IMG/VR virus record: IMGVR_UViG_3300042908_000680
Location: 85,499 to 149,498 of that record
DNA from: a virus
Reading direction: 5' to 3' (one strand)
DNA length: 64,000 bases
In this document: in pieces, positions 3,001-62,728 of the stretch
Numbering within the stretch: the stretch's first letter is position 1
How the letters are laid out: every line of letters starts with the position of its first letter
The notes under the pieces: generated by a model
The model's database searches: none
What the model was told of the DNA's origin: nothing
The model's input: the letters and a program-made list of their open reading frames with translations, nothing else
Translations under genes and position numbers: made by a program

Positions 3001-6000
3001 AGAATTTAAAGAAAAATATTTTTCTCAAGATATAGATGATATGTTCTTGCAATATGATTTAGTATATCCATCTGGAAGACCATTCTCCTCACTAATTAAA
3101 TTGCATAGTTCAAATGTTCGACTAGATGATGCTATATATATTAGCGAAAAATCAAATAGTCAGCTAAATCTAATTACAAGTGGACAAAAATATCAACTTG
3201 CAAATCTAAACTTATTTGCTCCAGAAAATGGTCCAATAATTAATTCTTATGCTAATCTTTTTGTAAGTGGAGTTGGTCCATCTAGACAACAGGTAAGTTT
3301 TTATATTAATAGCAGTGGTTATCCATGCGATAGCCCATATTTAAATATGTATACTTTTACTGTTGGCTCTGCTACTACAGAAGATCAAGTTTTTGGTGGT
3401 ATGTTTGGCTCATCTCCAGTAAAGGGGTTAGGATTATCTGTTAGTGGTCAATTTATGACAGAAACTAGTATGCCCTTATTTACATATGGATCTGGATACT
3501 ATTCTGAATCATATGTTAATTTAAGTACTCTAGTAGAAGATGATATCGTTAAAAATGAATATATAAACTTGGCTATTCGTGGAATATCTAAGTCTCAAGA
3601 TTTTTACCCATATTCTAGTATGCCATTATATGTCTATGGACAAGAATTCTCAACTGAAATAAATAATTACGCCCCGTTATTCGTGTTGAGCGATGATCTT
3701 AGTAGAGTTGTAGATTCTGGATCTCTAAACTTACATACTTTAAATTATCCAATATCTGATTCTCTCGCCAATAGCAGTGCCTCTATTAGATGGACCAATA
3801 ACAATGTTGGTAAAAACATAACAGTTCAAGATAACAGCTATGCTTATGTTGATTCAGATGATAACATTCGCGGCGTTGATTTATTATGTTATGGAACTTG
3901 CTCATCTAATAATAGATGTTCAGAAGCAGTAGTAGATATTCACGGGGTTAAGTGGTATGAACCAGAAGTTTGTGTTGACGGAGGAATATTCCGAGCCAAG
4001 TCTACATATACAAATCTAACATATCCAAGCGGATCATTCAGACACACCATTAGCCAAAATGAAGCAACAAATATACTCACAGAAAATTTATTTGTACTTT
4101 CTACTGAAAATAATGATTTCATGTCTACGGAGTCATCTCTAAATTCAGTTGTTTATGATATTATGCCATATAGTGGTCATTTCTATGGCATTAGAAAATA
4201 TACTGGATTGGCCCCCAATCTTCCATATGCCATTAATATAACTGGCAAGTCGGGATCAACAGATGCTATAGACATACCAACAGAAATTGTTGAAGTAGAA
4301 TATAATAAAAATGAAACTAATCTAACATCAACAGATTATAGTGGATTTAGGTTACTATCTAGTGGCACTAAAACTGCTGGAGATGAGTTTGGAAAATCTA
4401 TTGCGTCTAAAGATAATTTATTAGCGATAGGATCACCAAAAAGATCAATAGTATATAATAGTGGCGTTGGGTCAAATCTAACACTACAAGAGGCTGGGAC
4501 CGTATTCGTATATAGAAGACAAGAAAGACCTAGTGGATATAATTGGCCTTTAGATAATTATAAGTCTCCTTGGATACTGGAAACCGCCCTAACATTACCA
4601 TCTGGTATGCTAAAGGATTACTATACTCAATCAGAACTAGATCTTGGTTTACCATATAACTTAAGACCAATCCAAACAAGCTGGTTTGTTGGTCAAGAAG
4701 GAAGACAATTTGGACACTCGCTAGACATTTCCGTAAATAAAAATGAAAAATCATTAGGTGAGAGTTCTCGTCAAATAATTGTTGTTGGTGGCCCAAGTGC
4801 TAAATGGACTCCTAGAGTATTTGATAATACTCCACCATCCGATGTCAATATTGGATTAATAGTTTTTACTGACGAGTTTACTCCTAGAATTCCAGCACCA
4901 CTTCCTAATCAGCCCTTTAGAACTATAGGGTATGAAGAAGTTCTTGAATCTATAAAAGACAAAGACATAATATTTAATTATTTTGGTAATCCAAGAATCA
5001 AATTTAATGTTAAACTAATGATTTGCCAGCCTATCGCAGATAGTCCAGATATTGTTTCGCCAAGTTTTCCAGATAAACCAGATTTTATGGTTTTAAATTC
5101 TATAGGTAGAAATTCTGGATATAAACCAAATGCTGCAAAAACAGAGGCCATTGTCAGTGGTATTAAAGACGCTTTCTTTGAAGCGTTCCCATATGATAAT
5201 AGTAAAATTCATAACAATATACCACCAATTATCGGTTTATATATAGATAACAGCAGTTCTTTGGGTAGAGAATCTTTAGAGCCAGCTATAGATGAATTTG
5301 TTAAGTTCTATAAAAAATATAGCTTTGACAATGGGCTTATAGATTTTAATAACGTAAGAGAGTCTGGACAAGTAATTGAATATATTCCAGACACTTACGA
5401 TGCTGAAAATTGGGTTCAAATGTCAACGACAATACTTTCCGAAGTTTTAGATACTGGCAATCTAGTATCAAATAATCAAGTTAGATTTTTAACTGGTAGT
5501 GTTGGAACATTTAATACTAATCTTGGTCCTTTTAACATTCCTCCAGAGAGTGGTGGAAAAGCATATATTTTTGAAAAAGAAAGTGGTAATTGGAATCTTA
5601 TACAAGAAATCAAATCGCCCAATATCACCTATTCAAATCCAGACCGCTTTGGACATGCTGTTAGTATAAGCGATGACGGAGAATTGGTAGTAATTGGTTC
5701 TCCATACATAAATCAAGCTGTTACAATGTACGAGAGGAAAGAAGAAGAAAGAGATAGATTTTATTCTTCACTTTATAGTTGGGTAAAAACTAATCGTCCA
5801 GATAAATACTCATCTGAAATATTAACATATGAAAACTCTTATGGTTTTTCTAAAGATCAGCAAGCTTTGTATTTATCTTTAGACAAAACTGACAAATTCA
5901 AATCTAGGGTTGATCTTGGTATACAAGAGTATCAAAATATCTATACTTTTGATTATAGTAATATGCAATCAAATGGAAGTTGGTCATTCATTCCTAACGT

Positions 6001-9000
6001 TGTCGCACCAATCTCACGATTAGGTTATAGTATTGATGTTAACGAGGATGGCAGCGTTGTAGTCGCTAGCGCACCAACAGATAGTTTAAATTTGTATAAT
6101 GATGCTGATGTTTATTATGTAAATGGTAGTAGAGGAGGAAAAACATTCAGAACAGGATATATCGACCCATCTGGTGTTTTAACCGGCACAGTAAAACCAG
6201 CTTGGTCATCTAGTGTTAATGCTGGATCAATCCATGTATTTGAATCACGTAAGTATTATCCACATAATCAAGTAATAGAATATGGGCGGTTTGGAAACTT
6301 ACATGAAATTGATAGCAATGATACTCCAGATTCTGGACATTTCCACTACTTAGCCGATATCTTTGAAGATAAAAACTTTATTAAGACAGAGTTTACTGAT
6401 TCTAAGATTCCAAAAGAAGCCGGTTTGGCATTTATTATAACGCCTGCTGTTGATGCCTTAAGTACTAGTGACGAGGTTTATAACAATATTTATAACTGGT
6501 TAGCACTTGGAGATAGAAACTTAGTATTAGTAGCAAACGATCCAATTTGGGAAGGTAATGGGAAATATAAGAATTCAAATGATATTCTTAATAAATTACT
6601 TGAAAGACTTAATTCTCGCATGAGGGTTGTTCCAGCAAGAAGCAAATATGAATCACTACCAGAAGGATATTCAACATTTAATAATGTTATTCCATCTTTT
6701 ATACCACAAGGTTCTACATCAACCTATGTTCAAAGAACTTCCCTGCGTGGTAGCGGTGTTGCTGATATTAAAGTTTATTATCCCGGTTATTACCAAGTTA
6801 TGCCATGTCAAAAAGTTACAGATTGTAGTCCAGACCCCGTTAAAATACAAATACAATCACGCTGCGAAATGCCCTTAATGCATTACGGTGATTTAAGATC
6901 GCAGTGGAATGCGTTGTGCTGTACAAATGGTGGAACATTAATATATGGTATTAACTGGCCATTTACATTTGGATCATACAAACCCGCGTGTGGTGATACA
7001 GAATTCCCAGACAATCCAATGGCTAATTTTGAGCCAATTCCATTATTAGCAGCAGCAGAAAAAGTAACTTATGATGTAAATTATCCAGCGGTTCCAGCAA
7101 GATATCAAAACTTCCCTATTTACGAAACAGTATATACAAGTACACCATATTATGTATTTGGTAGCCCGGTTAGTCAGGCTACAAATTTTGTATGGGACTC
7201 TGGAAATACTCCATCTAATTTATCTCTAAATGCTAGTAGTAGCATAAGCGAAGGAAGATTCTATAAGCCCGAAGAAGGCTTATTACAAGCAAAGGGTATT
7301 TCTAAAATAAGTATAACACCATATACCACTAAAGAAATTGTATCGGACAAAAATTATTTCTGCGTTGAGCATTCATATGCAAAAACTACATCTAAAATTA
7401 TAGTTCTTGCTGGCGTTGAAACAGAATCTAGAGCCGCATTGTACAGTGGCCAAGGTGATCAAAATGTTAAATTTTATACTAATTTAGTCTCTAAAAATCC
7501 AACAATTAAGGGTTATTCTGATATTGCTCAACTTGGTGGCTGGACAGGACGAACAAGTTTCACTGATGGATATGCTAGTTCATTATTAAAAACTGTGTTT
7601 AGAAATGGAAATGAAGTAGTAGAAGACGTTGATACATCCTTCACATCAATAGATAGAATCTATCTTACCAATGTGTTTAATGTGGCTTGGGTTGCCAATA
7701 TAATTAGTCAGCCATCTCAATCCGAAATTAACGATATTAAAACTTGGCTATCTTATGGTGATAAAAAACTCATTATAACCTGTGGTAATGATATCAATAG
7801 TGTAAAGAATGCACAAGAATTATGTTCTAAGCTTGGAGTATATGTTGAGCCAGTTTTCCTACCATATTTGGATATGTACCCACAAATTAACTCTAGTTTT
7901 GAAATTAATGATATTCATCAAGCCGGTGGGAATTTTAGTAAAAATAAGATCGAATACTTCACTGCTGCAATACCTTTCTATCCACTCAAATTAACATCTA
8001 ATGGAATAGGAATAGCTTATTATTCTCAACCAATTTATGATGAAGTTCCAAAAACAAATACTAATATCTCTTGGGATATGAATGCTGGAGTGACCAAACT
8101 ATCTTTTCCAGTTATTCCTTGTTCTGGATACAAACTATTTATAACAACGTTATCTGAAACCTCAACAGAAATTGCGCCATTAGACATTGACATTGAAAAT
8201 GCCACATATCTCCCTAATTTACCATGCCCCATCGATTATACTTCATCTCAGGTAAATGAGTTAAATGTTGATGGAGAACTAATTTCTTACAAGTTAATTG
8301 GAAGTGGCGTTCCAACAATTAGGTGCGAAGGAACTACAACTAAAACAATTGATTTACAAGCGAGCGACAATGGAGATGATATAAATATTTATGTTTCTTG
8401 TGCTATTCAGAGGTTTGCGCTTAATTCTGAGTTTATTCCAAAAACAACAAAATTGATAGGTATATCTGGAGTATTAATTCCAGTATATCAATCTAATACA
8501 GTGATTGGATCACAAATTCCAACAAATCAATTTGAAACAGTAATGATTTCTGAAGAACAGCCAGCATTTACAGAAACTGTTCAATTGATTAGACCAATAA
8601 GTACAGATAATACTAAGTATTGTTCAGATAAGTGTTTAGCCGAAGGTCTTGGTGGTCAACTCATAGATGATGGTCCGGTCGTAGCAGCACAAGAAATAGA
8701 AATACTATCACCATTTAACGTTGGCGTTGCTAGATCAAGAATTACTGTTATAACAGACTCTAGTATATTGCAGGGTAGATATGTAGCAGATGAAGGTGGA
8801 GTAATACCAGTAGACACTCTTACATTTATCAGAAGCCTATATCCAGAAACAAACTTCCCCTCTACAACATATGGTAGACAATTTAATAAATATAAGAAGT
8901 TGATATCTCCAGAGCGAGGCAGTCCAAGTAAGTATTTTGGTCAAGGATCTTTAAGTGGCCTCAATGTCAATTTTGGAAATGCTGGTACAGTATCATTGTC

Positions 9001-10552
9001 AAATATTAATCAATATGAATCACAATATGATCCTAAATATGTAACTCGTCCAGATATTCCTTGGAAGGACGAAGTGGATGAAAAGAAGATACTTGAAATT
9101 AAAAATCAATTTATCAGCGGATTCTTAGATAGTCAAATATATAGTGCATCTACAGCTAGATTTAGTGGTATTGTAGATGGTGTTATGTATTCTGATGCTA
9201 CAATTGCTGGTGGATTACCGCAGTTATTAAAAGATAAAGGTTATGACTATTTAGATTTAGACAAGTTGCCATCTGGATATCGTGGTGATCTATTTGGATA
9301 CTCAGTATGCATAAGAGGAGAAAAAATTCTAGTTGGATCTCCATTCTCTGCTTTTGGTTCAGAAAGTATTACGCCTTGGTCGAGCGGTCTACAATTACAT
9401 CTTGGATATGACGGTGGTGCTGGTTCAGTTTATATGTTTGAAAAACCAAGTGGAGATGCTTGGACATGCTCTAGAAAATTTAGACCACAATCATTAATGG
9501 GACAACTAAGTGGAGTTAATACATTATCAGATCATTTTGGTCATTCTGTTGCTTTACAAAATGATACTATAGTTATCGGTTCTCCCAACCATGATTATGG
9601 AAATTACTATAGTGTTGTATTTAATAGCGGCTCATTTGCACGAAAGAATTTTAATCCACAGTTCGATATTCCAACTTATACATCTAATGATTTAGGATAT
9701 TCTGGAGTTAGAGCAACATTCAATACTGATGGTATTTATGGTAAGAATGCTGGCGCAATTTATGTTTATGAAAATAAGATTACTGATTGGGAAAACAAGA
9801 AACAGGGATGGAAGCTGATAGAAAAGATTTTACCATCTCCAAAGGTTCCAAGTGGATCTCTGTCAATTTCTGAAAGATTTGGTAGCAACGTATATTTGTC
9901 TAGACCATATAGAAGTGATGCTGACTATACAATACTTGTTGGATGTTATACCGCTTCTGGTGACGGGACACTAAATATCGGTGCAGCATATTCTAAGGAT
10001 ATAATGCTAAGAAAGCAGCGACCATCTCTTGCTAATTCCGGTACTTGGATAGATGCAAAAGTCTTTGGCGATAGATCGTCAGGTGATGATCATATAGTAA
10101 ACTTAAGATTTAGTAATAGTGGTAATAATATTCCATATTATGGTAGCGGTATAGTAGTTTCTAACTCAAATGGTGAAATTTTTATCGAAGTATCTGGACA
10201 AGATCCGGCGACAAAGGGGTTCATATCTCATAGACCATATATTGAGTCTATTATCGGACAGTACCAGTATGGTCAAATTCTAGAAAATGGTATGATATTG
10301 TTCTGCGATGGTCAAAACCCAGCACCAAGCTCACAAATCAACCTATTTATAGATGTTGAAAATTCAGCTTATGTGTATAATACATTAGGATTGTACGGTA
10401 GCGTCATGACAGATGTGGTTTCTACCTCTCCATCTGGACTAAATCTATTTATAGAAAGTCCTTCTGGACTCACATCTTCTTTAAATCTATTTGCACCTAG
10501 CGGGATAGGAAGTCTTAACGACAATCTTAACTTACAAGTAAGAGGGAAATAA
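2..10552 (+). CDS. Giant virion/tail structural protein with seven dispersed FG-GAP (integrin-alpha-like) repeats, a LamG-like region and xLNLFxxG repeats; 5' end lies outside the window
   Basis: The frame is open from position 2 (DNYIQKKPQQ...EDMFIRG), so the track start at 95 is internal. FG-GAP motifs: GDEFGKSIAS..IGSP, GRQFGHSLDIS..GGP, PDRFGHAVSIS..IGSP, SRLGYSIDV..SAP, GDLFGYSVCI..VGSP, SDHFGHSVAL..IGSP, SERFGSNVYLS. The protein is S/N/G/T-rich with beta-type composition. Confidence 0.75.
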   Translation, partial: DNYIQKKPQQYKIYDIKFEDPSGNLIIQYEDMFIRGDTYYTTYLSKPLVNNLLLPTWDSKYPLMDAAGSYSITLNISYDCNTYPFTSNFDPGYEQTCIINSTNLSPNPFISLNMSALEIGNSGGVGILRDSYLNFYSKVRDKSEREKRTLLPTELLTYSFNNGIYPQASSVWRSTTNNINYDNTASSGASHLLNKIRNDLTGDYITVINSSPVSDSGRIVLKFNTKPDKEAYDNYIDGAFAFGGSKEFNDAKLVNYLDNDNFFDIESLELKVIAKKATGTPDYTIDVVGYSDDKLLNVTPAIGGFLQNSGALVFDTNSVPDISGYNYKTFGISDSSLSDQSEYFQKDASPNGDHYILNNAPLVNSTSFQEYIIPLDIYQNPYDLGYKKYSISSLFENLYLDICPIPSGASICSVKLVVYYKPANALAMHTLGSPVDKSAVRKSITLLPSSNENGTQVNTNVKLSGILTGLTTPEYIKSNYSRRWRGNDGRILSGGDFMPEAFDFSFNHKQAINPFLTSYIDFKNVDGDNILSSSGTVVGQADQYFNILSNFGWRYSSNQLFTLTPTPYKSISWRNNVFDAFDRAARISSDDRLIINTLNNDSFTNYGNISKSFGFALFIRFTPDQSSDSLINNNLIFSYENSTTWSMVFICENGILKLKIKNADNSVTTLSDTRSILEYQFPFSVLITYNDDNTYKFKLYTDNELFSLFNNLRAVSPPQTSLKLLSNPSLYIGYSSTYSGLSSLPMFLHEVGISNGRCNIAEYINENILSNQTTASNVFSSHRMHFNSLSSKNIRSNQYTYVDDDISLWHLGDFKVCQFSPDFDFFTQRHGIDFLSFDLKHHGSGYSQATNLPLPSNINISGVAYHTQLENDFLRFNLSNIPTIDKDRFYAVAPRISKTLPRGYKFNQDAIYVDTIVEHETNDSMIWSNGKIGPKLIVSLYAKTQDSADRPSKSFGLINRSTHYLEPSGCIRKLTSKFSFEDLLDDSEPWALFDKESYLKEFKEKYFSQDIDDMFLQYDLVYPSGRPFSSLIKLHSSNVRLDDAIYISEKSNSQLNLITSGQKYQLANLNLFAPENGPIINSYANLFVSGVGPSRQQVSFYINSSGYPCDSPYLNMYTFTVGSATTEDQVFGGMFGSSPVKGLGLSVSGQFMTETSMPLFTYGSGYYSESYVNLSTLVEDDIVKNEYINLAIRGISKSQDFYPYSSMPLYVYGQEFSTEINNYAPLFVLSDDLSRVVDSGSLNLHTLNYPISDSLANSSASIRWTNNNVGKNITVQDNSYAYVDSDDNIRGVDLLCYGTCSSNNRCSEAVVDIHGVKWYEPEVCVDGGIFRAKSTYTNLTYPSGSFRHTISQNEATNILTENLFVLSTENNDFMSTESSLNSVVYDIMPYSGHFYGIRKYTGLAPNLPYAINITGKSGSTDAIDIPTEIVEVEYNKNETNLTSTDYSGFRLLSSGTKTAGDEFGKSIASKDNLLAIGSPKRSIVYNSGVGSNLTLQEAGTVFVYRRQERPSGYNWPLDNYKSPWILETALTLPSGMLKDYYTQSELDLGLPYNLRPIQTSWFVGQEGRQFGHSLDISVNKNEKSLGESSRQIIVVGGPSAKWTPRVFDNTPPSDVNIGLIVFTDEFTPRIPAPLPNQPFRTIGYEEVLESIKDKDIIFNYFGNPRIKFNVKLMICQPIADSPDIVSPSFPDKPDFMVLNSIGRNSGYKPNAAKTEAIVSGIKDAFFEAFPYDNSKIHNNIPPIIGLYIDNSSSLGRESLEPAIDEFVKFYKKYSFDNGLIDFNNVRESGQVIEYIPDTYDAENWVQMSTTILSEVLDTGNLVSNNQVRFLTGSVGTFNTNLGPFNIPPESGGKAYIFEKESGNWNLIQEIKSPNITYSNPDRFGHAVSISDDGELVVIGSPYINQAVTMYERKEEERDRFYSSLYSWVKTNRPDKYSSEILTYENSYGFSKDQQALYLSLDKTDKFKSRVDLGIQEYQNIYTFDYSNMQSNGSWSFIPNVVAPISRLGYSIDVNEDGSVVVASAPTDSLNLYNDADVYYVNGSRGGKTFRTGYIDPSGVLTGTVKPAWSSSVNAGSIHVFESRKYYPHNQVIEYGRFGNLHEIDSNDTPDSGHFHYLADIFEDKNFIKTEFTDSKIPKEAGLAFIITPAVDALSTSDEVYNNIYNWLALGDRNLVLVANDPIWEGNGKYKNSNDILNKLLERLNSRMRVVPARSKYESLPEGYSTFNNVIPSFIPQGSTSTYVQRTSLRGSGVADIKVYYPGYYQVMPCQKVTDCSPDPVKIQIQSRCEMPLMHYGDLRSQWNALCCTNGGTLIYGINWPFTFGSYKPACGDTEFPDNPMANFEPIPLLAAAEKVTYDVNYPAVPARYQNFPIYETVYTSTPYYVFGSPVSQATNFVWDSGNTPSNLSLNASSSISEGRFYKPEEGLLQAKGISKISITPYTTKEIVSDKNYFCVEHSYAKTTSKIIVLAGVETESRAALYSGQGDQNVKFYTNLVSKNPTIKGYSDIAQLGGWTGRTSFTDGYASSLLKTVFRNGNEVVEDVDTSFTSIDRIYLTNVFNVAWVANIISQPSQSEINDIKTWLSYGDKKLIITCGNDINSVKNAQELCSKLGVYVEPVFLPYLDMYPQINSSFEINDIHQAGGNFSKNKIEYFTAAIPFYPLKLTSNGIGIAYYSQPIYDEVPKTNTNISWDMNAGVTKLSFPVIPCSGYKLFITTLSETSTEIAPLDIDIENATYLPNLPCPIDYTSSQVNELNVDGELISYKLIGSGVPTIRCEGTTTKTIDLQASDNGDDINIYVSCAIQRFALNSEFIPKTTKLIGISGVLIPVYQSNTVIGSQIPTNQFETVMISEEQPAFTETVQLIRPISTDNTKYCSDKCLAEGLGGQLIDDGPVVAAQEIEILSPFNVGVARSRITVITDSSILQGRYVADEGGVIPVDTLTFIRSLYPETNFPSTTYGRQFNKYKKLISPERGSPSKYFGQGSLSGLNVNFGNAGTVSLSNINQYESQYDPKYVTRPDIPWKDEVDEKKILEIKNQFISGFLDSQIYSASTARFSGIVDGVMYSDATIAGGLPQLLKDKGYDYLDLDKLPSGYRGDLFGYSVCIRGEKILVGSPFSAFGSESITPWSSGLQLHLGYDGGAGSVYMFEKPSGDAWTCSRKFRPQSLMGQLSGVNTLSDHFGHSVALQNDTIVIGSPNHDYGNYYSVVFNSGSFARKNFNPQFDIPTYTSNDLGYSGVRATFNTDGIYGKNAGAIYVYENKITDWENKKQGWKLIEKILPSPKVPSGSLSISERFGSNVYLSRPYRSDADYTILVGCYTASGDGTLNIGAAYSKDIMLRKQRPSLANSGTWIDAKVFGDRSSGDDHIVNLRFSNSGNNIPYYGSGIVVSNSNGEIFIEVSGQDPATKGFISHRPYIESIIGQYQYGQILENGMILFCDGQNPAPSSQINLFIDVENSAYVYNTLGLYGSVMTDVVSTSPSGLNLFIESPSGLTSSLNLFAPSGIGSLNDNLNLQVRGK
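10373..10384 (+). promoter_or_regulatory. Candidate phage late-promoter motif GTGTATAATACA (copy 1)
   Basis: The identical 12-mer recurs at 20771-20782 in an intergenic gap. This copy is ~170 bp upstream of the 10552 start and contains TATAAT. Confidence 0.3.
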
Positions 10553-50929: not shown

Positions 50930-52005
50930 AGATCAAATCCTCCTAGGTCAACGTCCTCTAAGTCATTCTTACTAGCACCAATTTTATATGAAGTAATTTC
51001 ATGCTCTTGTGGTGCAACTTGTACCGATTCACTATTCATCCAAGGGTCAGTCCATCCAGATATTGGGTTTCTACAACCCTTATCGTATGGTAGTCCTATG
51101 TTCTTTCTTCTGGTCATACACAGCCAATCAATATATTCAGCCATAACTTTTTCATTCAAACCAATGATTGATCCATCTTTAAATAGGTATTCTGACCATG
51201 CCTTTTCTTCATTTGCTGCGGATTCAAACATTGCTACAGCTTCTTCTTGGCATTCTTCTGCTATCTTTACAAATCCCTCTTCTGGAACATTGTGAAGAAT
51301 CTTGATAATTTCTTGAGTATTATAAAGATGTAATGCCTCATCGCGTTTTATTAGCTTAATAATGTCTGCATTCCCAATCATTTTCTTATTTTCTGCAAAC
51401 GCGAATGCAGAGATAAATGAAACATAAAATCTAACCGCTTCAAGTATGTTAACGCTAATGAGAGTTAGGTAAATCTGCTTTTTTATATCTTTAACTTTGC
51501 CGGAATGACCTACTTCTCGTAAAGCGTTATATTCTTTTATTGCTACATTAGCTCGTTTGAGAATTTCTTTGTCTGTTAAACAGCTATCTAATATTTCACT
51601 AGGATTATTATATACGTTCTTAATGATATATGTATAGCTGTAACTATGAATTTGTTCGAAAAATTGCCAAACATTCATACAAGCTTCTAATTCTGGATTA
51701 GAAACATACTGATTGAAGCTTGGAACACCCCTACAAATAACTGAATCAAGCATAGTTTGATATTTAAGATTAGATGTGAAAATAAATCTTTCATTCTCAC
51801 TCATAATATCATCATTTTTGAAGTCATTACGATCTTTCTTCAGTTCTATTTCTTCTGGACGCCAAAAGAATTCAATTTGTTTCTTATATAAATCAAAAAA
51901 TACTGGATATTTAAATTTATCATATCTCTGTAATGATAAGTTTTCGCCTAAAAATAATGGTTGCTTCAAGTAGTCAACGTTTTTAGTATTTAATATTGTT
52001 TTCAT
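50926..52005 (-). CDS. nrdB: Class Ia ribonucleotide reductase beta subunit
   Basis: FFWRPEE, QTMLDS, EQIHSYSY, LEAVRFYVSF, RDEALH, QVAPQE. Confidence 0.95.
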   Translation of the reverse strand: MKTILNTKNVDYLKQPLFLGENLSLQRYDKFKYPVFFDLYKKQIEFFWRPEEIELKKDRNDFKNDDIMSENERFIFTSNLKYQTMLDSVICRGVPSFNQYVSNPELEACMNVWQFFEQIHSYSYTYIIKNVYNNPSEILDSCLTDKEILKRANVAIKEYNALREVGHSGKVKDIKKQIYLTLISVNILEAVRFYVSFISAFAFAENKKMIGNADIIKLIKRDEALHLYNTQEIIKILHNVPEEGFVKIAEECQEEAVAMFESAANEEKAWSEYLFKDGSIIGLNEKVMAEYIDWLCMTRRKNIGLPYDKGCRNPISGWTDPWMNSESVQVAPQEHEITSYKIGASKNDLEDVDLGGFDL

Positions 52006-52453
52006 GTTCCAATCTTCTTTCTATAGCTTTATTTATATCATCAAAAAAGCCTAACTCTTTGCGTTTACCATTAATTTGTATTCTTACTTGCCACTTTTTT
52101 CTTATTTTATTCCAAGAAATACCTCTATACCCACTAGTTGAATCTTTTCTAACATGTGAATTACTTTGATTAATTTCTTGTGTGACATCTCGTAAATTAT
52201 TAATACAATTATTCTGTTTATTTCTATCAATGTGATCTATTTGATTTTTAGGCCATTCATCATAATACAAATACCATGCCAATCTGTGTGCTTTATATCT
52301 TTTATATCCTACTGATATTACTATATACCCCTTATTATCAATAGTACCTGCGATATCTCCCGCCTTTGTATATCCCAAATTAGGATTTATTTTCCAGAAT
52401 ATATTTCCAGTGTTGGGGTCATATAATAACATTTCTTTTAAATTATATTGCAC
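51983..52453 (-). CDS. HNH-AP2 homing endonuclease between nrdA and nrdB
   Basis: YDPNTG, AHRLAW, IDHIDRNKQNNCINNLR (HNH_3), TSGYRGISW..KWQVRI..LGFFD (AP2). The likely start is a GTG at 52453 overlapping the end of nrdA. Confidence 0.9.
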   Translation of the reverse strand: MQYNLKEMLLYDPNTGNIFWKINPNLGYTKAGDIAGTIDNKGYIVISVGYKRYKAHRLAWYLYYDEWPKNQIDHIDRNKQNNCINNLRDVTQEINQSNSHVRKDSTSGYRGISWNKIRKKWQVRIQINGKRKELGFFDDINKAIERRLEHENNIKY

Positions 52454-54677
52454 AAGAACCACCCTCACAGGTAGATAACAAATCTTTTTCAGTATTACCA
52501 TCAGAATCTGGCGTATTGCAATAATAAAAGTTCTTTACACCATATTTATACCCCTGTATCTGATCTTTGATTAAAATACTCAAAGGAATATTGCCGTCAG
52601 GATAATGGGAATAATTATAGTATAAATTAACACTTATACTCATATCAACAAATTTTTGTAACACTGCACAAATATTTAATATTGCTTTGTTGTTTGGCAT
52701 TTCCCACGCTAAAGTATAGTAATTTTTACGAGAAGCATAATTTGGCACTAATTGCTTTAGGATGCCGTTCTTAGCCTTTTTATAAGACATGAGGCTACGG
52801 ACAGGTTCAATTCCATTTGTGCTGTTCTGGATGACGCTAGAGGACTCACAGGGCATTATAGCAGTCAGAGTAGAGTGTCTTAGACCATGAATTTTGATCC
52901 TAGCTCTCAAACCCTCCCAATCCATAATATACTCTGGCTTAACCAGTTCGTCAACTGTTTTTTTGTACCAATCGATTGGAAGCAATCCGCGAGAATATTT
53001 AGTCTCATTAAATTTATTACATGGACCCTTGAGTTCAGCAAGTTTGCAGGACTCATTTAGTAAGTACCACTGAATTTTTTCCATGATTTCATGAACTAAT
53101 CTTAATGTTTCGGCATCATCATATTTTAGCTTGTGCTTTGCTAAAAATGCAGCAAAATTAGTAATACCAATTCCAAGTGATCTACGATTCTTTGTAAAGT
53201 TTTCACCAGCCGCTACTGGATAATCTTGATAATCAATAATAGATTCTAAAGACTTTACAGCAATAGAGCAAGCTTTTTCTATGTCCTTGTTATCTTCCAG
53301 TTCAAGTAGGTTTAATGCTGACAGAATACAAATACCAATTTCGCCCTCTTTGTCATCTATAGATGATATTGGTTTAGTTGGATGGATAATTTCTTGACAT
53401 AGATTACTCATGTAAACTGGGGCATCCCATGATCCATGCTCATTAGCATTATCAATATTCATAACATAAATGCGACCAGTTTCTAATCTCTCTTTGGTAA
53501 AAATTTCAGCAAGCTTTCTTGCATTAATTTTCTTCTTCATCTTTACGTAGCGAGCGTTTTCATATTTTTCATATAGCTTTTTGAAGTCTTCATTATTGTT
53601 CATAGAACTATAAAGACCACCAGTTTCATGAGGACTCATTAGTGTAATGTCTTCATTTTTAATTAAACGCTCATAGAATAACTTGTTAAACTGAACAGAA
53701 TAATCTAGCTTTCTTACTCTATTATCGTCAGTTCCCGCGTTATTCTTTAATGTCATTACATCTTCAATTTCATAGTGCCAAAATGGAATATGCACAGTAG
53801 CAGAACCACCACGAATACCATTCTGACTTGTTGCTTTAACCGTTGACTCAAATATCTTTAAGTATGGGATAAGACCAGTATGAATTACTTCGCCGCCCCT
53901 AATGCTAGAGTTAATTGGGCGAATGCGGCCAATATTTAAACCAATGCCAGCCCTTCTTGCAGTATACTTTCCAACAGCGTGTACGCTTGAAAATATAGAA
54001 TCAAGATCATCTTCAACGTCTACTAGAACACAGCTAGCAAACTGTTTGATTTTAGTTCTTACGCCAGCCATGATTGGAGTTGGAAGATTAATCTTGAATG
54101 TAGAGAAACATTCATATGCTTCTTCTACTTCTTCTACGGTATCAAATAAAGACATAGCGATTGCTATATAAGCAAACTGTGGTGTTTCATACATTTGTCC
54201 GGTAGACCTATTTTTGATAAGATACTTATCTATCATTTGCTGTAATCCAGCATAAGTATACAAATAATCTCTATCATGATCAACAAACTTCTCAATCTGA
54301 TCTATTTGTTCTTTACTCCACTTTGATAGTAGAGTATCGTCATATATTTCAGCTTTTACGTTACTAGATATATGAGACAACAAACTTGGTGGAGCATCAT
54401 GGTTTTCCCAAAGATCTTTTCTGAGAGACATATTCAATAGTCTAGATGCAACATATTGATAGTTTGGCTTGCTGGGAGAAGTTAGATCGTTAGCAGACTT
54501 GATTAAGATTTGATGGATTTCTTCTGTGGTTATTCCATCTTTTAAAGAGAGGTTAGCATTCATCTCTATATCTGACCAAGAAACGTTAGCGATGTCTTTT
54601 ATCGCCCACTCTACAACTTTATGAATCTTCTCAACTGTATAGACTTCGAAACTACCGTTCCTTTTTTGAACGCGCAT
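52443..54677 (-). CDS. nrdA: Class Ia ribonucleotide reductase alpha subunit with ATP cone
   Basis: VQKRNG ATP cone, PTPIMAG, QFASCVL, SQNGIRGG, SNLCQEI, MPCESSS, FYY, C-terminal CEGGSCAI. Confidence 0.96.
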   Translation of the reverse strand: MRVQKRNGSFEVYTVEKIHKVVEWAIKDIANVSWSDIEMNANLSLKDGITTEEIHQILIKSANDLTSPSKPNYQYVASRLLNMSLRKDLWENHDAPPSLLSHISSNVKAEIYDDTLLSKWSKEQIDQIEKFVDHDRDYLYTYAGLQQMIDKYLIKNRSTGQMYETPQFAYIAIAMSLFDTVEEVEEAYECFSTFKINLPTPIMAGVRTKIKQFASCVLVDVEDDLDSIFSSVHAVGKYTARRAGIGLNIGRIRPINSSIRGGEVIHTGLIPYLKIFESTVKATSQNGIRGGSATVHIPFWHYEIEDVMTLKNNAGTDDNRVRKLDYSVQFNKLFYERLIKNEDITLMSPHETGGLYSSMNNNEDFKKLYEKYENARYVKMKKKINARKLAEIFTKERLETGRIYVMNIDNANEHGSWDAPVYMSNLCQEIIHPTKPISSIDDKEGEIGICILSALNLLELEDNKDIEKACSIAVKSLESIIDYQDYPVAAGENFTKNRRSLGIGITNFAAFLAKHKLKYDDAETLRLVHEIMEKIQWYLLNESCKLAELKGPCNKFNETKYSRGLLPIDWYKKTVDELVKPEYIMDWEGLRARIKIHGLRHSTLTAIMPCESSSVIQNSTNGIEPVRSLMSYKKAKNGILKQLVPNYASRKNYYTLAWEMPNNKAILNICAVLQKFVDMSISVNLYYNYSHYPDGNIPLSILIKDQIQGYKYGVKNFYYCNTPDSDGNTEKDLLSTCEGGSCAI

Positions 54678-56390: not shown

Positions 56391-57689
56391 CTAGTATAAA
56401 GTAAATGAGGATAGGTCGATAGTTGTTATCGTATATGAATTACCAGATCTATTATTTCTTGTCCAAAGTAGATTCATATTAGTATTTAATGTACTTATAA
56501 AATTACTATAGAATGGTCCACTGTCTGGTCCGGTCCATGTTATTATCAAAACCAATTGATTATTGATGATTAAAAATGATGGGTTGCCACTATCTCCACC
56601 TATTATTGATTCATGAAATAATATTCTATTTGGGTATGTATTATAATAACTATTATTGGGATCAAGATAATTTTGTGTTGGTTGCTGTGTATATGCGGAA
56701 CTGCCCGTTGGGTCCACGTATAGAAATTCTTTTACTAAAGCTTTTTCTTCTTGATCTAAAGATAGCATTGGAAGTCTGTAGATGGTATAAGTACCACTTT
56801 TATTTCTATAAATTGTAGGTAAATATATAGACCAATTAGAAGGAAGTAATTTGGCAAAACTAATGGAATTTGGTACGTCAGAATCTAAAAGTCCCAAATA
56901 AATATCAGTAGTTAATGTTGGTATTTTATCTATTAATGTTCTTTCTATAACAACATTATTGCTGGTGATAAATCTAACTTTAGCCCCTATATCCATTTCA
57001 TAGTGAGTTGCAAAAACTAAATGGCTTGGACTAATAAGAGTTCCGGCCCTAGTATTTGATCCAGTTGTATTCCAAGGACTTATGCAAGTTAAATCTAAAT
57101 CATAAGCCCAACAATTAGTATTTCTAACGTATGTAGAAGTTGAATGGTCTTGAGTACTATAAATGTTCTTTGCTATAGTTGGGTTTTTATTTAATAGTCT
57201 ATTATCGACATTATCAGAACAATTTTTTGCCAAGCTTCCAGATGTAAACTCACAAAAAGCATCTATTTGTCCACCTATATTACAATTGACATTTACTTCT
57301 GCAATGTTAAAATCAGATGTATTTATTCCACTTGCTATAATTTTTACTGCTCTTTTAGAAGTGCTTCCCGTTGGCACTCCAGAACATATATAGTTGTTAG
57401 GATTTAAATTTGATAAAATACTGTTATCTGTACTATATACAGTAACTGATATATCATCTTGTTTATATAATATTATATTAAAATCAGTTATAGTAGATGA
57501 ATTAGTAGATCTGAATACTGTAGCGTCATAATTCGTAGTATAGCCAGAGCCAGTAGAAACTAATATCCTATCTTGGGGCTGTGCTGTGATTTTTACTCTA
57601 TCTCCACCAATATCTGGTTTTTTAAACAGATAAGATGAATTCTCAGATATAGAACCACAATTGAGAGGTATATTTTGAGCTTCTATCAT
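56391..57689 (-). CDS. Trypsin-like serine protease (cassette 2)
   Basis: Triad: RAGTLISPSHLVFATHY, TDIYLGLL, GGDSGNP. N-terminal PLNCGS motif shared with its paralog. Confidence 0.85.
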   Translation of the reverse strand: MIEAQNIPLNCGSISENSSYLFKKPDIGGDRVKITAQPQDRILVSTGSGYTTNYDATVFRSTNSSTITDFNIILYKQDDISVTVYSTDNSILSNLNPNNYICSGVPTGSTSKRAVKIIASGINTSDFNIAEVNVNCNIGGQIDAFCEFTSGSLAKNCSDNVDNRLLNKNPTIAKNIYSTQDHSTSTYVRNTNCWAYDLDLTCISPWNTTGSNTRAGTLISPSHLVFATHYEMDIGAKVRFITSNNVVIERTLIDKIPTLTTDIYLGLLDSDVPNSISFAKLLPSNWSIYLPTIYRNKSGTYTIYRLPMLSLDQEEKALVKEFLYVDPTGSSAYTQQPTQNYLDPNNSYYNTYPNRILFHESIIGGDSGNPSFLIINNQLVLIITWTGPDSGPFYSNFISTLNTNMNLLWTRNNRSGNSYTITTIDLSSFTLY

Positions 57690-58993
57690 TATGGTGTTCC
57701 ATAGCTAGCTTGACAGTAATTTACTGCCGCTACCCATCTAATATTTTTAGTTGCTAATCCAGTAACTCTAATAGACAATCCTCCATTTGTAGCATCTGCT
57801 GCTACGCTGGCTAAAGCCGAAGTCATACCAGCATCTTTCCAGCTTGTTTCAGTGGGTGTTCCAATCAAAGCGGTAGTACTAGCACCAACCCCTCTTTTAA
57901 TACCTCCAACAAAATTCCATACGGCTGAAGAAGTATCCGTGTCATTATAAGCACTAATTTGTATGTTAAAATTTACCGTAGTTTTATCTGGTAAAAATAT
58001 AAAATTTCTTGAAATTGTGTTATTTGGCGATGTCACTAAAGATGCAGATCCATTTGCCGTTAAAATCACATTTGATGTATTACTTGATGTTTCAATTCTT
58101 AGCACTATAGTTGATAGCTGTGCATCTCCCGCAGAAGAGAAACTACCACCGGCTTGCGCCACTTCTCCAAACAAAGTAGTTTTTGCAGATCGACCACCTA
58201 AAATAGATGAATATACTCCGCTAGTAATATTGTTTTGACCGGCAATAATGCTAGAAGATTCAGCAATTGCTGTGTTTGTATATCCATTTCCAATAAAGGT
58301 GTAGTCTGAAATAGTAGAATTACCAAAACCATTTATAATAGCAGAATAATTTCCTCTATTATTATTAAAAAATCCATTACATATCAAACCAAAGTCAGCG
58401 GATGTTACAGTATTTCTTTGACCATTAATTATGGTAGCGCGATTAGAGCTTGATGTTCCAGCAGTATTTCTATCTCCATTAAGAATAGATGTATAAACAC
58501 CGCTACCAACACAGCCATTACCAGATAAAATTGTTATATAATAACCACTTGCAGTACAAGTATTAGCGTGATAAATACCATTATAGTTAAAACTTGAACC
58601 AAGCAGTGATGAAATTATTGAGTTTCCTGATCCCAAGCATAGATTTCCGCTTCCTAATATATTGTTAAATTTTGTAGTATTATTACCAGAGATTTCAACT
58701 ATTGGGGATGAGATTACTATTCCGCCAACTATAGATCCATCACCAACATATAGTTTTTTAGTATCGGTTGTCCATAACGGTTCTGCTACCGATGGAGTTA
58801 CCAATAGTCTTTCTGAATCAAGACCCTGCTTTAATTGCAAAGTTGCAGCTTGATTTAGTACAGAACTTCTTAATGTGCTGGCAGAAACTTTTTTTGTTAT
58901 TGCTTGATCATTTGGGCTATCCACCATAACAAAAAGATCATCATCTGTTACAGATGATACTGATGGTAACTGCGTTATTTTTACAACACCCAT
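57689..58993 (-). CDS. Tail-fibre-like protein: Mtd/hyaluronidase-type N-terminal anchor + beta-helix repeats (cassette 2)
   Basis: KITQLP..DDDLFVMVD..TKKVS; LQLKQG..TP..AEP..TDTKKLYVGDG..GG; ~15-aa SxIxxGxxN repeats; C-terminal LSIRVTG..IRWVA domain. Confidence 0.75.
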   Translation of the reverse strand: MGVVKITQLPSVSSVTDDDLFVMVDSPNDQAITKKVSASTLRSSVLNQAATLQLKQGLDSERLLVTPSVAEPLWTTDTKKLYVGDGSIVGGIVISSPIVEISGNNTTKFNNILGSGNLCLGSGNSIISSLLGSSFNYNGIYHANTCTASGYYITILSGNGCVGSGVYTSILNGDRNTAGTSSSNRATIINGQRNTVTSADFGLICNGFFNNNRGNYSAIINGFGNSTISDYTFIGNGYTNTAIAESSSIIAGQNNITSGVYSSILGGRSAKTTLFGEVAQAGGSFSSAGDAQLSTIVLRIETSSNTSNVILTANGSASLVTSPNNTISRNFIFLPDKTTVNFNIQISAYNDTDTSSAVWNFVGGIKRGVGASTTALIGTPTETSWKDAGMTSALASVAADATNGGLSIRVTGLATKNIRWVAAVNYCQASYGTP

Positions 58994-59002
58994 ATTAAAC
59001 TC

Positions 59003-60211
59003 CTAATAAGATAAAAAAGATGAAAGATCTATTGTAGTCAATTGATACCCACCGCCAAGCTGAGACATCATTTGATTTATTGCATCTTTTTCTAATGATG
59101 TAAAGCTTCCAGATCCACCTATCCCCCAAGTAGTAACAAATATGAGTACTAATTCATTATTTATCAAAAGAAATGCCGGACTACCAGAATCTCCAGTATA
59201 TAGCTCTCTAAAAAATGGTCTACGTATAGAAGTTAGTTCTTGACCTATACATTTTGCTATAGAAGATAACTGATATAGGTTTGTGACGCTTACATATTCT
59301 GACTGATCCACTATTATAACCGGTATTTCTATTCCACGCTTAATATTTGGCAGATATTTTCCAAAGTCAATTGGAAGAATTTTTGTAAATAAAATTGTAT
59401 TTGGAAGATCTGAATCCAATAAACCCACTTGTATATCATTGAACTTACTTGTAGAATTATAATTTGGATGAGTAATAATACCCGTGATAGTTCTAGTTAT
59501 TGATACATTATTATTTGTTACAAATCTTATAGTTGATCCACTTGCAATAGGATAGTGGGCAGCAAACATTACATGCCTAGGGCTTATCAAAACGCCCGCC
59601 CTGTTTGCTATTCCGTAGGAATTCCATGGGCTGATGCATGTAAAATCAACATTTTTAAATACAAAAGAAGAATTTCTAGTGTAAATATTATTTGCGTGAT
59701 TTTGAATAGAGTATACTTGCTGTGAAGAGGTTGGTGATATTCCAGATATTTTTAAATCTACTTGATCTGTTATATGACTTGATAAACTATTATTCACAAA
59801 AGACAAAAAGGTATCTTGATTTGATGTACTACCAATTGGAGAATATTGTATATTGATATTAACATATTGATTAGATCCATCATCAAAAGATAGTTCTAAT
59901 ATATCATTTCCTACTGATATTCCAGAACATTGCAGATTATTAACAAGAACATTATTTGAATAGTTTTTTATAGATATTATTTTTTTACTAGATGATTCAA
60001 AGATAAAATCTCTGATTCCAGATGAACTAGATACTCTATATATATTTGTATCTTTGTCAATTATGGAACCCGAAGATGATGGCGAAATGGGCCTAAAATA
60101 ACTACTATATTCCAACCTTGAAGATAAATTGGGTTTACTAAATGTCCAAGATGGAGGATTATTAGTAGATCCACAGTTTATCGGAACGCCTTTTGCTTGT
60201 AAAATAGACAT
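59003..60211 (-). CDS. Trypsin-like serine protease (cassette 1)
   Basis: Triad: RAGVLISPRHVMFAAHY, NDIQVGLL, TGDSGSP. Likely start is MSILQAKGVPINCGS. Confidence 0.85.
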   Translation of the reverse strand: MSILQAKGVPINCGSTNNPPSWTFSKPNLSSRLEYSSYFRPISPSSSGSIIDKDTNIYRVSSSSGIRDFIFESSSKKIISIKNYSNNVLVNNLQCSGISVGNDILELSFDDGSNQYVNINIQYSPIGSTSNQDTFLSFVNNSLSSHITDQVDLKISGISPTSSQQVYSIQNHANNIYTRNSSFVFKNVDFTCISPWNSYGIANRAGVLISPRHVMFAAHYPIASGSTIRFVTNNNVSITRTITGIITHPNYNSTSKFNDIQVGLLDSDLPNTILFTKILPIDFGKYLPNIKRGIEIPVIIVDQSEYVSVTNLYQLSSIAKCIGQELTSIRRPFFRELYTGDSGSPAFLLINNELVLIFVTTWGIGGSGSFTSLEKDAINQMMSQLGGGYQLTTIDLSSFLSY

Positions 60212-60212
60212 A

Positions 60213-61541
60213 TTATGTAGTTGTTGTATCAACGATGTAGTTTTTGGCAGTTGCTATACTAGTATTATGTGTGCTAATACCCGGATTCCCATATACATAA
60301 ATAGTTTTTGATGTTGCCGCCGTTGGTAAAAGATTGTAAATATTATTTAACTGTGCCGCTGAAAATTGACAATTTTTGAATGAAAAATTGCCATATGAAT
60401 TGTTAAAATTTATTTGAGAAAGATTTGTACATCCATCTAAAACAAATGTACCGGGTGATATAATTGATGGAGAAAAAGTAATTGATTGTAGCGTTGTTGA
60501 ATTTGTTAAGTTTAAATTATTGATTTTATTATTGCTAAAATTTAAAGATGTTATTTTTGCACCCTCAAATGCTAACCAACTTAAGTTAATGTTACTAGAT
60601 AAATCTATAGATGACAGATTGGTATTACCAATAAATAAACTTGATAAATTAGTACAATTTTTAAGATTTAATTTTGATAATGATGCGTTGTAAGTAAGAT
60701 ATACTGTTGTAAGACCAGAGGCGTTAGAAAAGTCTACCCATTGTAAATTATCATTTCCATTCATGTTACAATATGTGACGGTTGGAATTTTTATCCACTC
60801 TAAATTTGATACCACATTTCCATTTATTTGTATTCCACTGACATTATTTTTTAGATGAATATATTTTACTGTATCATTACTATCAATTGATATACCTGTC
60901 AAAGATGTCATTTCTTCAAAGTTAATCTCAAAATTTTTAGAACTAGCACTACTGGAAAAGTTTATTATGTTACCAGATTGAGCAGCATTACCAGATGAGC
61001 AACTCCAATAGTATAATTCTTTTATTGAATTTTTAGCATATATTCCAGTATTTGAAGAATTAAGTGCAATTGAAGCTGTTATAGAACTGCTTGGATTTCC
61101 ATTTCCAAAAACTCTAACATCACCACTTGGTGTTTGTACAGCTAAATACCCAGTTGATGTATTAAATGTTGCTGAGTGTGATGATGAACTACTATTGCTT
61201 TTTATTCTCATCATCCCACTAGGTATACATAATGGACTTGGATATATTGGGCCAGTGTATACTGGATATCCACCTTGAGTATATCCATCTCCTATATATA
61301 GATTAGATTTATTTGTAGAAAATACTGGTTCACCAAGAGAAGGAATAACTGATAATAATTCAGATTCAAGTCCCTGTCTAAGTTGTAATGCCGCTGGCTG
61401 GCTTAATAAAGAATTTCTTAGTAAACTTGCAGATATTCTTTTTGTTACAGCATTGCCGCTTGGATCATCTAATATCAGCAATAAATCATCATCAGTAACA
61501 GATGATCCAGATGGTAATTGATTGATTCTTATTATACCCAT
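60213..61541 (-). CDS. Tail-fibre-like protein: same N-terminal anchor + leucine-rich repeats (cassette 1)
   Basis: RINQLP..DDDLLLILD..TKRIS; LQLRQG..GEPVFSTNKSNLYIGDG..GG; LRRs LSKLNLKNCTNLSSLFIGNTNLSSIDLSSNINLSWL. Confidence 0.75.
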   Translation of the reverse strand: MGIIRINQLPSGSSVTDDDLLLILDDPSGNAVTKRISASLLRNSLLSQPAALQLRQGLESELLSVIPSLGEPVFSTNKSNLYIGDGYTQGGYPVYTGPIYPSPLCIPSGMMRIKSNSSSSSHSATFNTSTGYLAVQTPSGDVRVFGNGNPSSSITASIALNSSNTGIYAKNSIKELYYWSCSSGNAAQSGNIINFSSSASSKNFEINFEEMTSLTGISIDSNDTVKYIHLKNNVSGIQINGNVVSNLEWIKIPTVTYCNMNGNDNLQWVDFSNASGLTTVYLTYNASLSKLNLKNCTNLSSLFIGNTNLSSIDLSSNINLSWLAFEGAKITSLNFSNNKINNLNLTNSTTLQSITFSPSIISPGTFVLDGCTNLSQINFNNSYGNFSFKNCQFSAAQLNNIYNLLPTAATSKTIYVYGNPGISTHNTSIATAKNYIVDTTTT

Positions 61542-61542
61542 A

Positions 61543-61791
61543 TTAAACTCCTAATATACCAGAAGCACCAGTTGTATAATAAGTAACATTATCAAATCTA
61601 TTAGTTAATCTACTAGCATTAGCGGTATACGAATAAGACTTTTCATATTCAAAAGGGCTAATTAAAGCTTGATAGTTACCACTACCACTAATAGGTCTTC
61701 CAAACCAACAATATACAACGGCTGAACCATTTTGAATTGTTTCTCTACCAGAAACCACATTGGTAATTACATCGGTTGTTGAGATTGGCAT
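61543..61791 (-). CDS. Small hypothetical (possibly virion) protein
   Basis: 82 aa with a GGGG RBS; SG-rich. Confidence 0.55.
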   Translation of the reverse strand: MPISTTDVITNVVSGRETIQNGSAVVYCWFGRPISGSGNYQALISPFEYEKSYSYTANASRLTNRFDNVTYYTTGASGILGV

Positions 61792-61807: not shown

Positions 61808-62728
61808 TTAAAATTGATCTTTTAATGTCCAAACTACTTTTCTTGGAGGAAAACCGTCTACATCACTAAATACCCAAGAGCCATTTTGTGCCAACATTTC
61901 TGCTGCATCTCGCTCTCTTATCCAGAAACTTCCATCTGGTTGATCTAAACGCTTCTCGCCATTATTCCAAACTCCCCAAGAGTTTTGGACTAAGAATAGT
62001 GTTTCATTATAAATTTCATGAGTATCATCCATCCCAATCCAAGCCATCGCGTGACCCCATGATCCAGATCGGGCGGCAATACCATTCTTATCTCTTCTAG
62101 AACTAAATCCAGAATTACTGCATACACTAATAGAATAACCATTGGCTATTGCATCTCTGGCTTGATCTATTGTGTTAATTAAGCTGATGGTCTTAACTTG
62201 ATGTTTCTTCGCCGCCTTTACTAATTCTTCTGGAACACCAGTTCTGCCCCACTTACCACCAATAGCACTATATGTTGAAAGATCATAATCTCCGTACTTT
62301 TGACGAAGTAATATTCCTCCATTTTGGTGGACGAATTTAGCAGCACCACCACAAGTCATACCTTCACCGCCGTGTCCGCGTGAACCATAAATACCTTCAG
62401 TAGCACCACGGGCCACAAACTCTTCTCGTTGCCCATTTATAATTTCACAACTGCGTGTAATATCTACGCTATTTCGCGTTGCATGTGAAACACAATCTCC
62501 TTGGACTTGCCTTTCTGATGGACCAAAAGAGGGATCAAACTTCAAGAGAGACTTAAACGGTAGGGATAGTTTTCCTTTTCCAGTACCATATAAATCATGT
62601 GCTGCCACACCGAATAGTGGATGTGGCAGTTCTCCTAAGAGCTTGTCCAACTCTTTTGGGTCACAGTATGATCCTACAAAGCCATCTTTATAGGCTTTTA
62701 ATAAATCTTTCGGTGTCTTGAACATCAC
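61808..62728 (-). CDS. Papain-family (C1-like) cysteine peptidase
   Basis: QVQGDCVSHA (oxyanion Q and catalytic C), WGHAMA (H), QNSWG (N), GSFWI. Confidence 0.88.
   Translation of the reverse strand: MMFKTPKDLLKAYKDGFVGSYCDPKELDKLLGELPHPLFGVAAHDLYGTGKGKLSLPFKSLLKFDPSFGPSERQVQGDCVSHATRNSVDITRSCEIINGQREEFVARGATEGIYGSRGHGGEGMTCGGAAKFVHQNGGILLRQKYGDYDLSTYSAIGGKWGRTGVPEELVKAAKKHQVKTISLINTIDQARDAIANGYSISVCSNSGFSSRRDKNGIAARSGSWGHAMAWIGMDDTHEIYNETLFLVQNSWGVWNNGEKRLDQPDGSFWIRERDAAEMLAQNGSWVFSDVDGFPPRKVVWTLKDQF

Follow-up and report, generated by a model that had tools for sequence, protein, structure and literature searches.

Tandem cassettes of a putative receptor-binding fibre and a predicted trypsin-fold protease are exchanged between uncultured phages

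Introduction

Cassettes that join a tail fibre gene to a partner gene are well known from phages, examples being S/U and S'/U' of Mu, H/G of P2, Stf/Tfa of lambda and gp37/gp38 of T4 and T2. To our knowledge, the virion-borne phage enzymes that are directed against the host surface are mostly glycan depolymerases and peptidoglycan hydrolases. Here we describe two tandem cassettes in which a fibre-like gene is followed by a gene for a predicted trypsin-like serine protease. They lie in a stretch of 64,000 nucleotides (the window, i.e., the whole stretch of DNA that was analysed), which corresponds to positions 85499-149498 and thus to the final 64 kb of the 149,498-bp IMG/VR virus record IMGVR_UViG_3300042908_000680. 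The record belongs to an uncultured lake phage and has an estimated completeness of 94% and a G+C content of ~33%. The original prediction for the window had proposed that the fibre and the protease form a swappable unit of receptor binder and enzyme, and we investigated the organization of the cassettes, the relatives of their proteins and their distribution among uncultured phages.

Results

The two cassettes are arranged in tandem on the minus strand, which carries every gene between ~64.0 kb and ~21.6 kb of the window. Fibre A (60213-61541, minus, 442 aa) is followed by protease A (59003-60232, minus, 409 aa from a TTG codon), for which an ATG at 60211, 1 nt past the fibre A stop, is the likelier start and gives a protein of 402 aa. 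Fibre B (57689-58993, minus, 434 aa) is followed by protease B (56391-57689, minus, 432 aa), and in this pair stop and start overlap as TAATG. The four co-directional open reading frames (ORFs) are predicted from this layout to form two translationally coupled units, each consisting of a fibre gene and a protease gene. Their sizes of 2539 and 2603 bp agree with the ~2.55 kb originally given for each unit, and the whole genome contains two copies of each gene and no more. An identical 21-nt sequence lies at the head of both units: copy 1 (61536-61556, minus, coordinates approximate) is placed ahead of the fibre A ATG, and copy 2 (58988-59008, minus, coordinates within a few bases), TATTAGGAGTTTAATATGGGT, comprises a stop, a ribosome-binding site and the fibre B ATG. 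This junction repeat was obtained by aligning both junctions; a direct-repeat search gave only short imperfect repeats and missed the 21-nt copy. A shorter TAYTAGGA is present 3' of protease B, and scans for promoters and terminators gave no signal above chance.

The two fibres are 55% identical over residues 1-99 (expectation value (E) 1e-32) and share no similarity over the rest of their length, which confirmed the earlier description of a common N-terminal anchor with unrelated C-termini. The anchor has two parts, an N-terminal element (residues 1-50 in fibre A) and Mtd_N (PF18454; residues 53-88), and both fibres pass the Pfam cut-off of 26.3 bits for Mtd_N, fibre A with 34.0 bits (E 2.7e-8) and fibre B with 26.4 bits. 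Fibre A also matches phrog_7816. The anchor profile aligns with residues 3-47 of Mtd chains in the PDB (E 0.03); no Mtd chain in the PDB was matched past this N-domain, the C-terminal sandwich of fibre B not having been searched separately. In the distal part of fibre A, weak leucine-rich repeat (LRR) matches were detected at residues 264-359 (Pfam, E 0.0016-0.03), along with a visible NL..L repeat of ~22 residues. Modelling of fibre B with AlphaFold2 (AF2) gave a beta-roll at residues 151-282, which aligns to the YadA/UspA1 head (VIA-align to UspA1 3pr7, Z 15.8, 29% identity), and a confident C-terminal beta-sandwich at residues 290-434. Both results are in line with the LRR-type and the repeat plus beta domain C-termini that had been read from the two fibres. 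At its N-terminus the fibre B model is of low quality, which is to be expected where a protein trimerises; Mtd_N forms a trimer in Mtd of the Bordetella phage. Residues 95-434 of fibre B have only 15 relatives among 5.8 billion proteins. Elsewhere, the anchor was also found in an internal position, at residues ~1002-1089 of a 1386-aa protein (L002, 3841-8001) and at ~373-466 of an 862-aa protein (L007, 4428-7016), so the shared element is not always the extreme N-terminus of the fibre.

Proteases A and B are paralogues with 34% identity from end to end (E 4e-66), protease B having an insertion of ~25 residues ahead of GDSG. As judged from these alignments, the fibre/fibre and protease/protease similarities are both far beyond chance. 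The features originally reported for the proteases could be aligned in both, namely the N-terminal PxNCGS (PINCGS in protease A), the triad motifs AAH/ATH, D and GDSG, and the C-terminal TTIDLSSF, and neither protein has a hydrophobic N-terminal stretch that could be read as a signal peptide. The AF2 model of protease A, based on a 31-sequence alignment, has a mean predicted local distance difference test (pLDDT) score of 86, rising above 90 over residues 150-409. It comprises a disordered N-terminal segment of ~37 residues, an immunoglobulin (Ig)-like beta-sandwich (residues ~40-145) and a domain (residues 166-409) with the double beta-barrel of the S1 chymotrypsin fold. Foldseek matches of this domain in the PDB include activated protein C, factor IXa, thrombin and trypsin (E 1.7e-9 to 4e-8, target-normalised template modelling score 0.54-0.68 over ~220-250 columns). 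The Ig-like sandwich is Big_2-like: its profile matches an S-layer protein and a phage short tail fibre in the PDB, and Pfam Big_2 is present in some of the protease relatives. The triad H226/D266/S349 is invariant in the 31 aligned sequences and is retained by all but one of ~224 relatives (225 domain hits), which indicates selection on the enzyme activity. With Pfam Trypsin (PF00089, cut-off 20.6), protease A reaches 21.8 bits and protease B gives no match; the subfamily has invariant motifs of its own, i.e., SPWNS, LISPRH, GLLDSDVP, LDQEEKA and GGGYQLTxIDLS.

We then compared the window with related IMG/VR contigs. Contigs L004-L006 have flanks that are 87-96% identical to those of the window and hold cassette A in slot 1 (fibre 91%, protease 95%); their slot 2 is occupied by a 231-aa fibre with the anchor alone in common and by a protease that is 29% identical to protease B. 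Contigs L008-L010, with flanks 94-100% identical, hold cassette B in slot 2 (fibre 92%, protease 97%), and slot 1 contains a different 501-aa fibre and a protease of 41% identity. Cassette B is also present in L027 and L048, at 78% and 83% (protease 83% to L027), although the backbone of these contigs is unrelated. When cassette B of the window was compared with that of L027 by domain, the anchor was 61% identical, the distal fibre 78%, the protease N-domain 80% and the catalytic domain 85%. These values point to an anchor that diverges with the backbone and to a distal fibre and a protease that move together; the predicted unit of exchange is the distal fibre plus the protease, inherited together. 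The finding of different cassettes in the same slots of 87-100%-identical flanks, and of cassette B in an unrelated backbone, supports the original idea of a swappable unit. The number of cassettes, for which a comparison had originally been suggested, varies among metagenome phages from one (L023, L030, L167) to two or three in loci with a second type of anchor.

This second type, anchor B, is a different conserved fibre N-terminus (MSIDLGN...LGLG..DTVEFG), which emerged from an IMG/VR sample drawn by two peptide patterns and biased to closer relatives, with ORFs called mechanically and anchor profiles built from the lineage of the window phage. The collection scan used a narrower anchor alignment, the first alignment having been too divergent. 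Eighty-three loci with a protease relative gave 94 protease ORFs, or 64 clusters at 90% identity. In nine of these clusters the next gene upstream has the full two-part anchor, in nine more an Mtd_N-type N-terminus and in 12 anchor B; it is of another kind in 31 and cut off in three. The claim that protease and fibre are neighbours was therefore upheld in part. In the PxNCG-type lineage an anchor fibre is always adjacent (in one case two genes upstream), whereas among the 61 dereplicated clusters of the wider family no more than 18 are preceded by an Mtd_N-type fibre, and another 12 by a fibre with anchor B. In the reverse test, on 80 IMG/VR loci found via the anchor, a protease was located downstream of all 11 full-anchor fibres, in one case with a sulfotransferase-like gene in between, and downstream of none of the 68 fibres that start directly at Mtd_N.

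The N-peptide of the protease tracks the anchor class, being PxNCG or PxKCG in 13 of 13 full-anchor (class A) cases, and the anchor B proteases carry another N-peptide, LGTVSINEGK..WFEIDQF. Such co-variation between the two proteins fits physical contact or a shared docking site. Loci with anchor B (L062, L065 and L068) contain tandem cassettes too, in two or three copies, and the fibres of L062 are 73% identical over 93 residues and unrelated beyond, their proteases being 40% identical. Paired fibres have unrelated distal folds and range from 113 to 2201 aa in length. On the evidence of these loci, the pairing of fibre and protease appears widespread in uncultured phages. A gene of ~266-282 aa accompanies the cassette in L002 (9239-10039), L023 (8278-9078), L030 (3540-4340) and L011 (6156-7004), sitting just past the protease or between fibre and protease; none is present in the window. 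The L002 copy matches Pfam Sulfotransfer_1, the other copies being assigned by size and position alone, and this sulfotransferase-like gene might encode a modifier of the fibre, the protease or a host glycan.

The protease domain also occurs in fusions, where it takes an N-terminal, central or C-terminal position. In the uncultured T4-like phages L024 (5834-7774), L025 and L052, it forms the C-terminal part of a 640-aa protein that begins with a gp15-type tail sheath stabiliser and is encoded beside a T4-type portal gene; the stabiliser part has homologues in the gp15 proteins of cyanomyophages and Pelagibacter phage HTVC008M. The gp15 genes of cultured cyano- and pelagimyophages match the N-terminal part of the L024 fusion only; gp15 is a structural neck/tail protein. 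In L015-L017 the protease domain is fused to fn3 and DUF285 repeats and lies behind an Mtd_N protein, and in the P0051/P0057 lineage the protease has a fibre-type N-terminus of its own, with a fibre gene upstream. None of 32 long homologues joins anchor A or B to the protease in one protein. Signal peptides and surface-protein repeats are present in long bacterial relatives, some of which also carry peptidoglycan-binding domains. Their large size and signal peptides suggest that the protease subfamily probably acts outside cells. A homology between the LRR part of fibre A and the DUF285 part of a 1156-aa fusion was considered and rejected (best E 2.1), as was a T4-like identity of the window phage, no gp15 or T4 portal family match being found in the record. 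Some bacterial relatives, among them P0124, P0128, P0138 and P0148, are very large proteins with thrombospondin-type-3 repeats and choice-of-anchor Q or peptidoglycan-binding domains, and their named sources include Kiritimatiellia metagenome bins.

Database searches placed the proteases in a large family, 1817 clusters at 50% identity reaching E <= 1e-30. No match was found for either protease in PHROGs or NCBIfam, and the Pfam copy that was searched did not include PF26918, a family precomputed on some protease homologues. Within these collections, the proteases make up a distinct predicted family without a name in Pfam (apart from the borderline match to the generic Trypsin family), PHROGs or NCBIfam. 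When the 6.8-kb region was searched at the nucleotide level, none of 50,697 phage records matched. In agreement with the original statement that the pairing was not recognised as a described phage module, a full-text literature search returned no description of a fibre-paired S1 protease; the passage retrieved on T4-like rhizobiophages mentions 'trypsin-like' in an annotation list without context (PMC10783043).

The surroundings of the cassettes were also inspected. A conserved 82-aa ORF (61543-61791, minus) lies directly upstream, followed further upstream by a gene for a 306-aa protein with a weak papain-family match (61808-62728, minus; Pfam C1, E 0.0016). The position of both is unchanged in all close relatives, and in L027 a homologue of the papain-like peptidase (54% identical) is found downstream of the cassette instead. 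At the other end of the window, a 3485-aa ORF (95-10552, plus) has an FG-GAP repeat near residue 3150 as its sole Pfam match and is followed by ORFs of 601, 1562 and 1092 aa, none of them with a Pfam match; these four are possibly giant tail or fibre proteins. A 172-aa ORF read as HNH-like (51983-52501, minus) separates the genes for the two subunits of ribonucleotide reductase. L008 and L023 also have this ORF (99-100% identical), and it is missing from the same site in L004, L030 and L014, which looks like the presence/absence polymorphism typical of a homing endonuclease.

Discussion

The first protein of each cassette would be a receptor binder of the tail-fibre type, with an N-terminal attachment element, Mtd_N and a highly variable distal binding domain, and the second an accessory enzyme composed of a short N-peptide, a Big_2-like Ig domain and a trypsin-fold serine protease domain. 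Conserved sequence on both sides, i.e., the fibre anchor and junction at the 5' end and the protease C-terminus at the 3' end, would provide the homology for swapping. By inference, the protease of the window phage may be displayed on virions, attached to its cognate fibre or next to it, and may cut a host-surface protein that the fibre brings within reach. It would then be a protein-directed counterpart of a tailspike depolymerase or of a receptor-destroying enzyme. We regard this proposal of a protease that travels on the virion with its cognate fibre and cleaves a protein of the host surface as evenly poised between right and wrong. It is tempting to extend it, as a tentative speculation that we would not yet back, to tailed phages of uncultured aquatic bacteria in general, which may use a large, unnamed class of fibre-docked serine proteases, each matched to and exchanged with one receptor-binding domain, as protein-directed receptor-destroying or barrier-cutting enzymes.

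Several observations weigh against the proposal of a virion-borne enzyme. About half of the dereplicated protease clusters (31 of 61) follow no recognisable fibre and have other neighbours or are fused in cis, and the co-variation of the protease and fibre N-termini could reflect shared descent alone. Protein searches with three family members in the 50,697 phage records matched the protease domain only to the uncultured podovirus MW202510 and to no cultured phage. In the window, the cassettes lie ~35 kb from the large putative tail genes, amid putative lysis or membrane genes. Finally, tight coupling behind a fibre gene is the classic position of fibre chaperones.

This last point leads to an explanation in which the protease works within the infected cell, maturing its cognate fibre in trans or serving it as a chaperone, and is absent from the virion or incidental there. 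By analogy, such a protein may be likened to peptidase S74 of endosialidases and T5 pb1, or to assembly factors of the Tfa/gp38 type. Consistent with this, the protease gene directly follows the fibre gene with a stop/start overlap and is co-inherited with the distal fibre domain, and the 37 N-terminal protease residues that are disordered in the monomer model are as expected of a partner-binding segment. However, the paired fibres, from 113 to 2201 aa, are unrelated distally, and outside the anchor they have no candidate cleavage site in common. Distant relatives of the distal domain of fibre B are encoded by phages that have no protease at all, so that this domain does not seem to depend on one for folding. 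The Ig-like domain, the gp15-type and fn3/DUF285 fusions and the secreted bacterial homologues suit an exposed enzyme better, and the fusions to structural proteins, together with the signal peptides of the bacterial relatives, appear to favour virion display over fibre maturation. We therefore think it unlikely that the protease serves to mature or fold its fibre.

The genomic setting of the window raises the question of lysis, because the cassettes are located between the papain-like peptidase gene and genes for lipoproteins or membrane proteins, and five long homologues have a peptidoglycan-binding domain. The proteases could then belong to the lysis machinery or be soluble late enzymes that are set free when the cell lyses; they would cut envelope proteins or peptidoglycan peptides, and their link to the fibres would be positional only. 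In other phages, however, the pair is found within structural modules, following terminase, portal and fibre genes in L002 and a tailspike-like gene in L001. Which proteases are present, and how many, goes with the fibres rather than with the lysis genes, and a lysis enzyme has no evident need of a cognate copy for each fibre, which makes a lytic role improbable in our view. The logic of a receptor binder with an enzyme would suit the removal of receptors equally well, and the distance of the cassettes from the main tail genes of the window phage could be taken to mean that the pair has no part in the virion, being instead a released or cell-bound module of targeting and effector proteins, for instance for superinfection exclusion by removal of the phage's own receptor, or a bacteriocin-like weapon. 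Mtd_N and the anchor are features of phage fibres, though, and neither a signal peptide nor a membrane anchor is present for reaching the cell surface from inside, so that we give this explanation very little credence.

Should the enzyme prove to be virion-borne, a fibre-paired serine protease would represent a third class of phage enzyme beside depolymerases and peptidoglycan hydrolases, directed at proteins on the host surface, for example S-layers, pili or outer-membrane receptors. If the extension to phages of uncultured aquatic bacteria held as well, cutting such proteins would be, next to glycan depolymerases, a general and modular component of host recognition by phages. As the family is large, unannotated and associated with the host-range genes that are exchanged fastest, it could matter for the prediction of host range from metagenomes. 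It could also be a source of proteases with diversified active-site loops, and the cassette boundaries provide a clear natural example of modular exchange of receptor-binding proteins.

Altogether, the architecture is a variant of the well-known cassette of fibre plus partner, with a new kind of partner. Like the fibre cassettes of Mu, P2, lambda and T4, it has a conserved fibre anchor, a variable distal part and a tightly coupled downstream partner that is exchanged with the distal fibre, and several alternative cassettes exist per phage lineage. In contrast to the Tfa/gp38 systems, the partner is a protein of ~400 aa with an Ig-like domain and an S1 serine protease domain with a conserved triad, and the cassette proteases gave no Pfam, PHROG or NCBIfam match to assembly proteins of the Tfa/gp38 type. 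The cassettes resemble tailspike and fibre depolymerases (P22 tailspike protein, K1F endosialidase, those of Klebsiella phages) in that a modular enzyme, swapped between phages, is tied to receptor recognition; the depolymerases act on polysaccharides and reside inside the receptor-binding protein, whereas here the predicted enzyme is a protease with a gene of its own. A serine peptidase functionally tied to a phage fibre is also known as peptidase S74 of endosialidase and T5 pb1. S74 is built into the fibre itself as its C-terminal domain and has a Ser-Lys dyad and another fold, in contrast to the separate gene and the His/Asp/Ser chymotrypsin fold seen here, and fibres A and B gave no S74 match in Pfam. 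The presence of Mtd_N at the base of a variable receptor-binding part recalls Mtd of Bordetella phage BPP-1, for which we know of no protease partner and from which the LRR-like distal domain of fibre A and the YadA-head-like roll plus beta-sandwich of fibre B appear to differ. With peptidase S1 (PF00089) the cassette proteases share the fold and the catalytic motifs AAH, D and GDSG; they differ in scoring at the border of or under the Pfam cut-off and in having their own invariant motifs.

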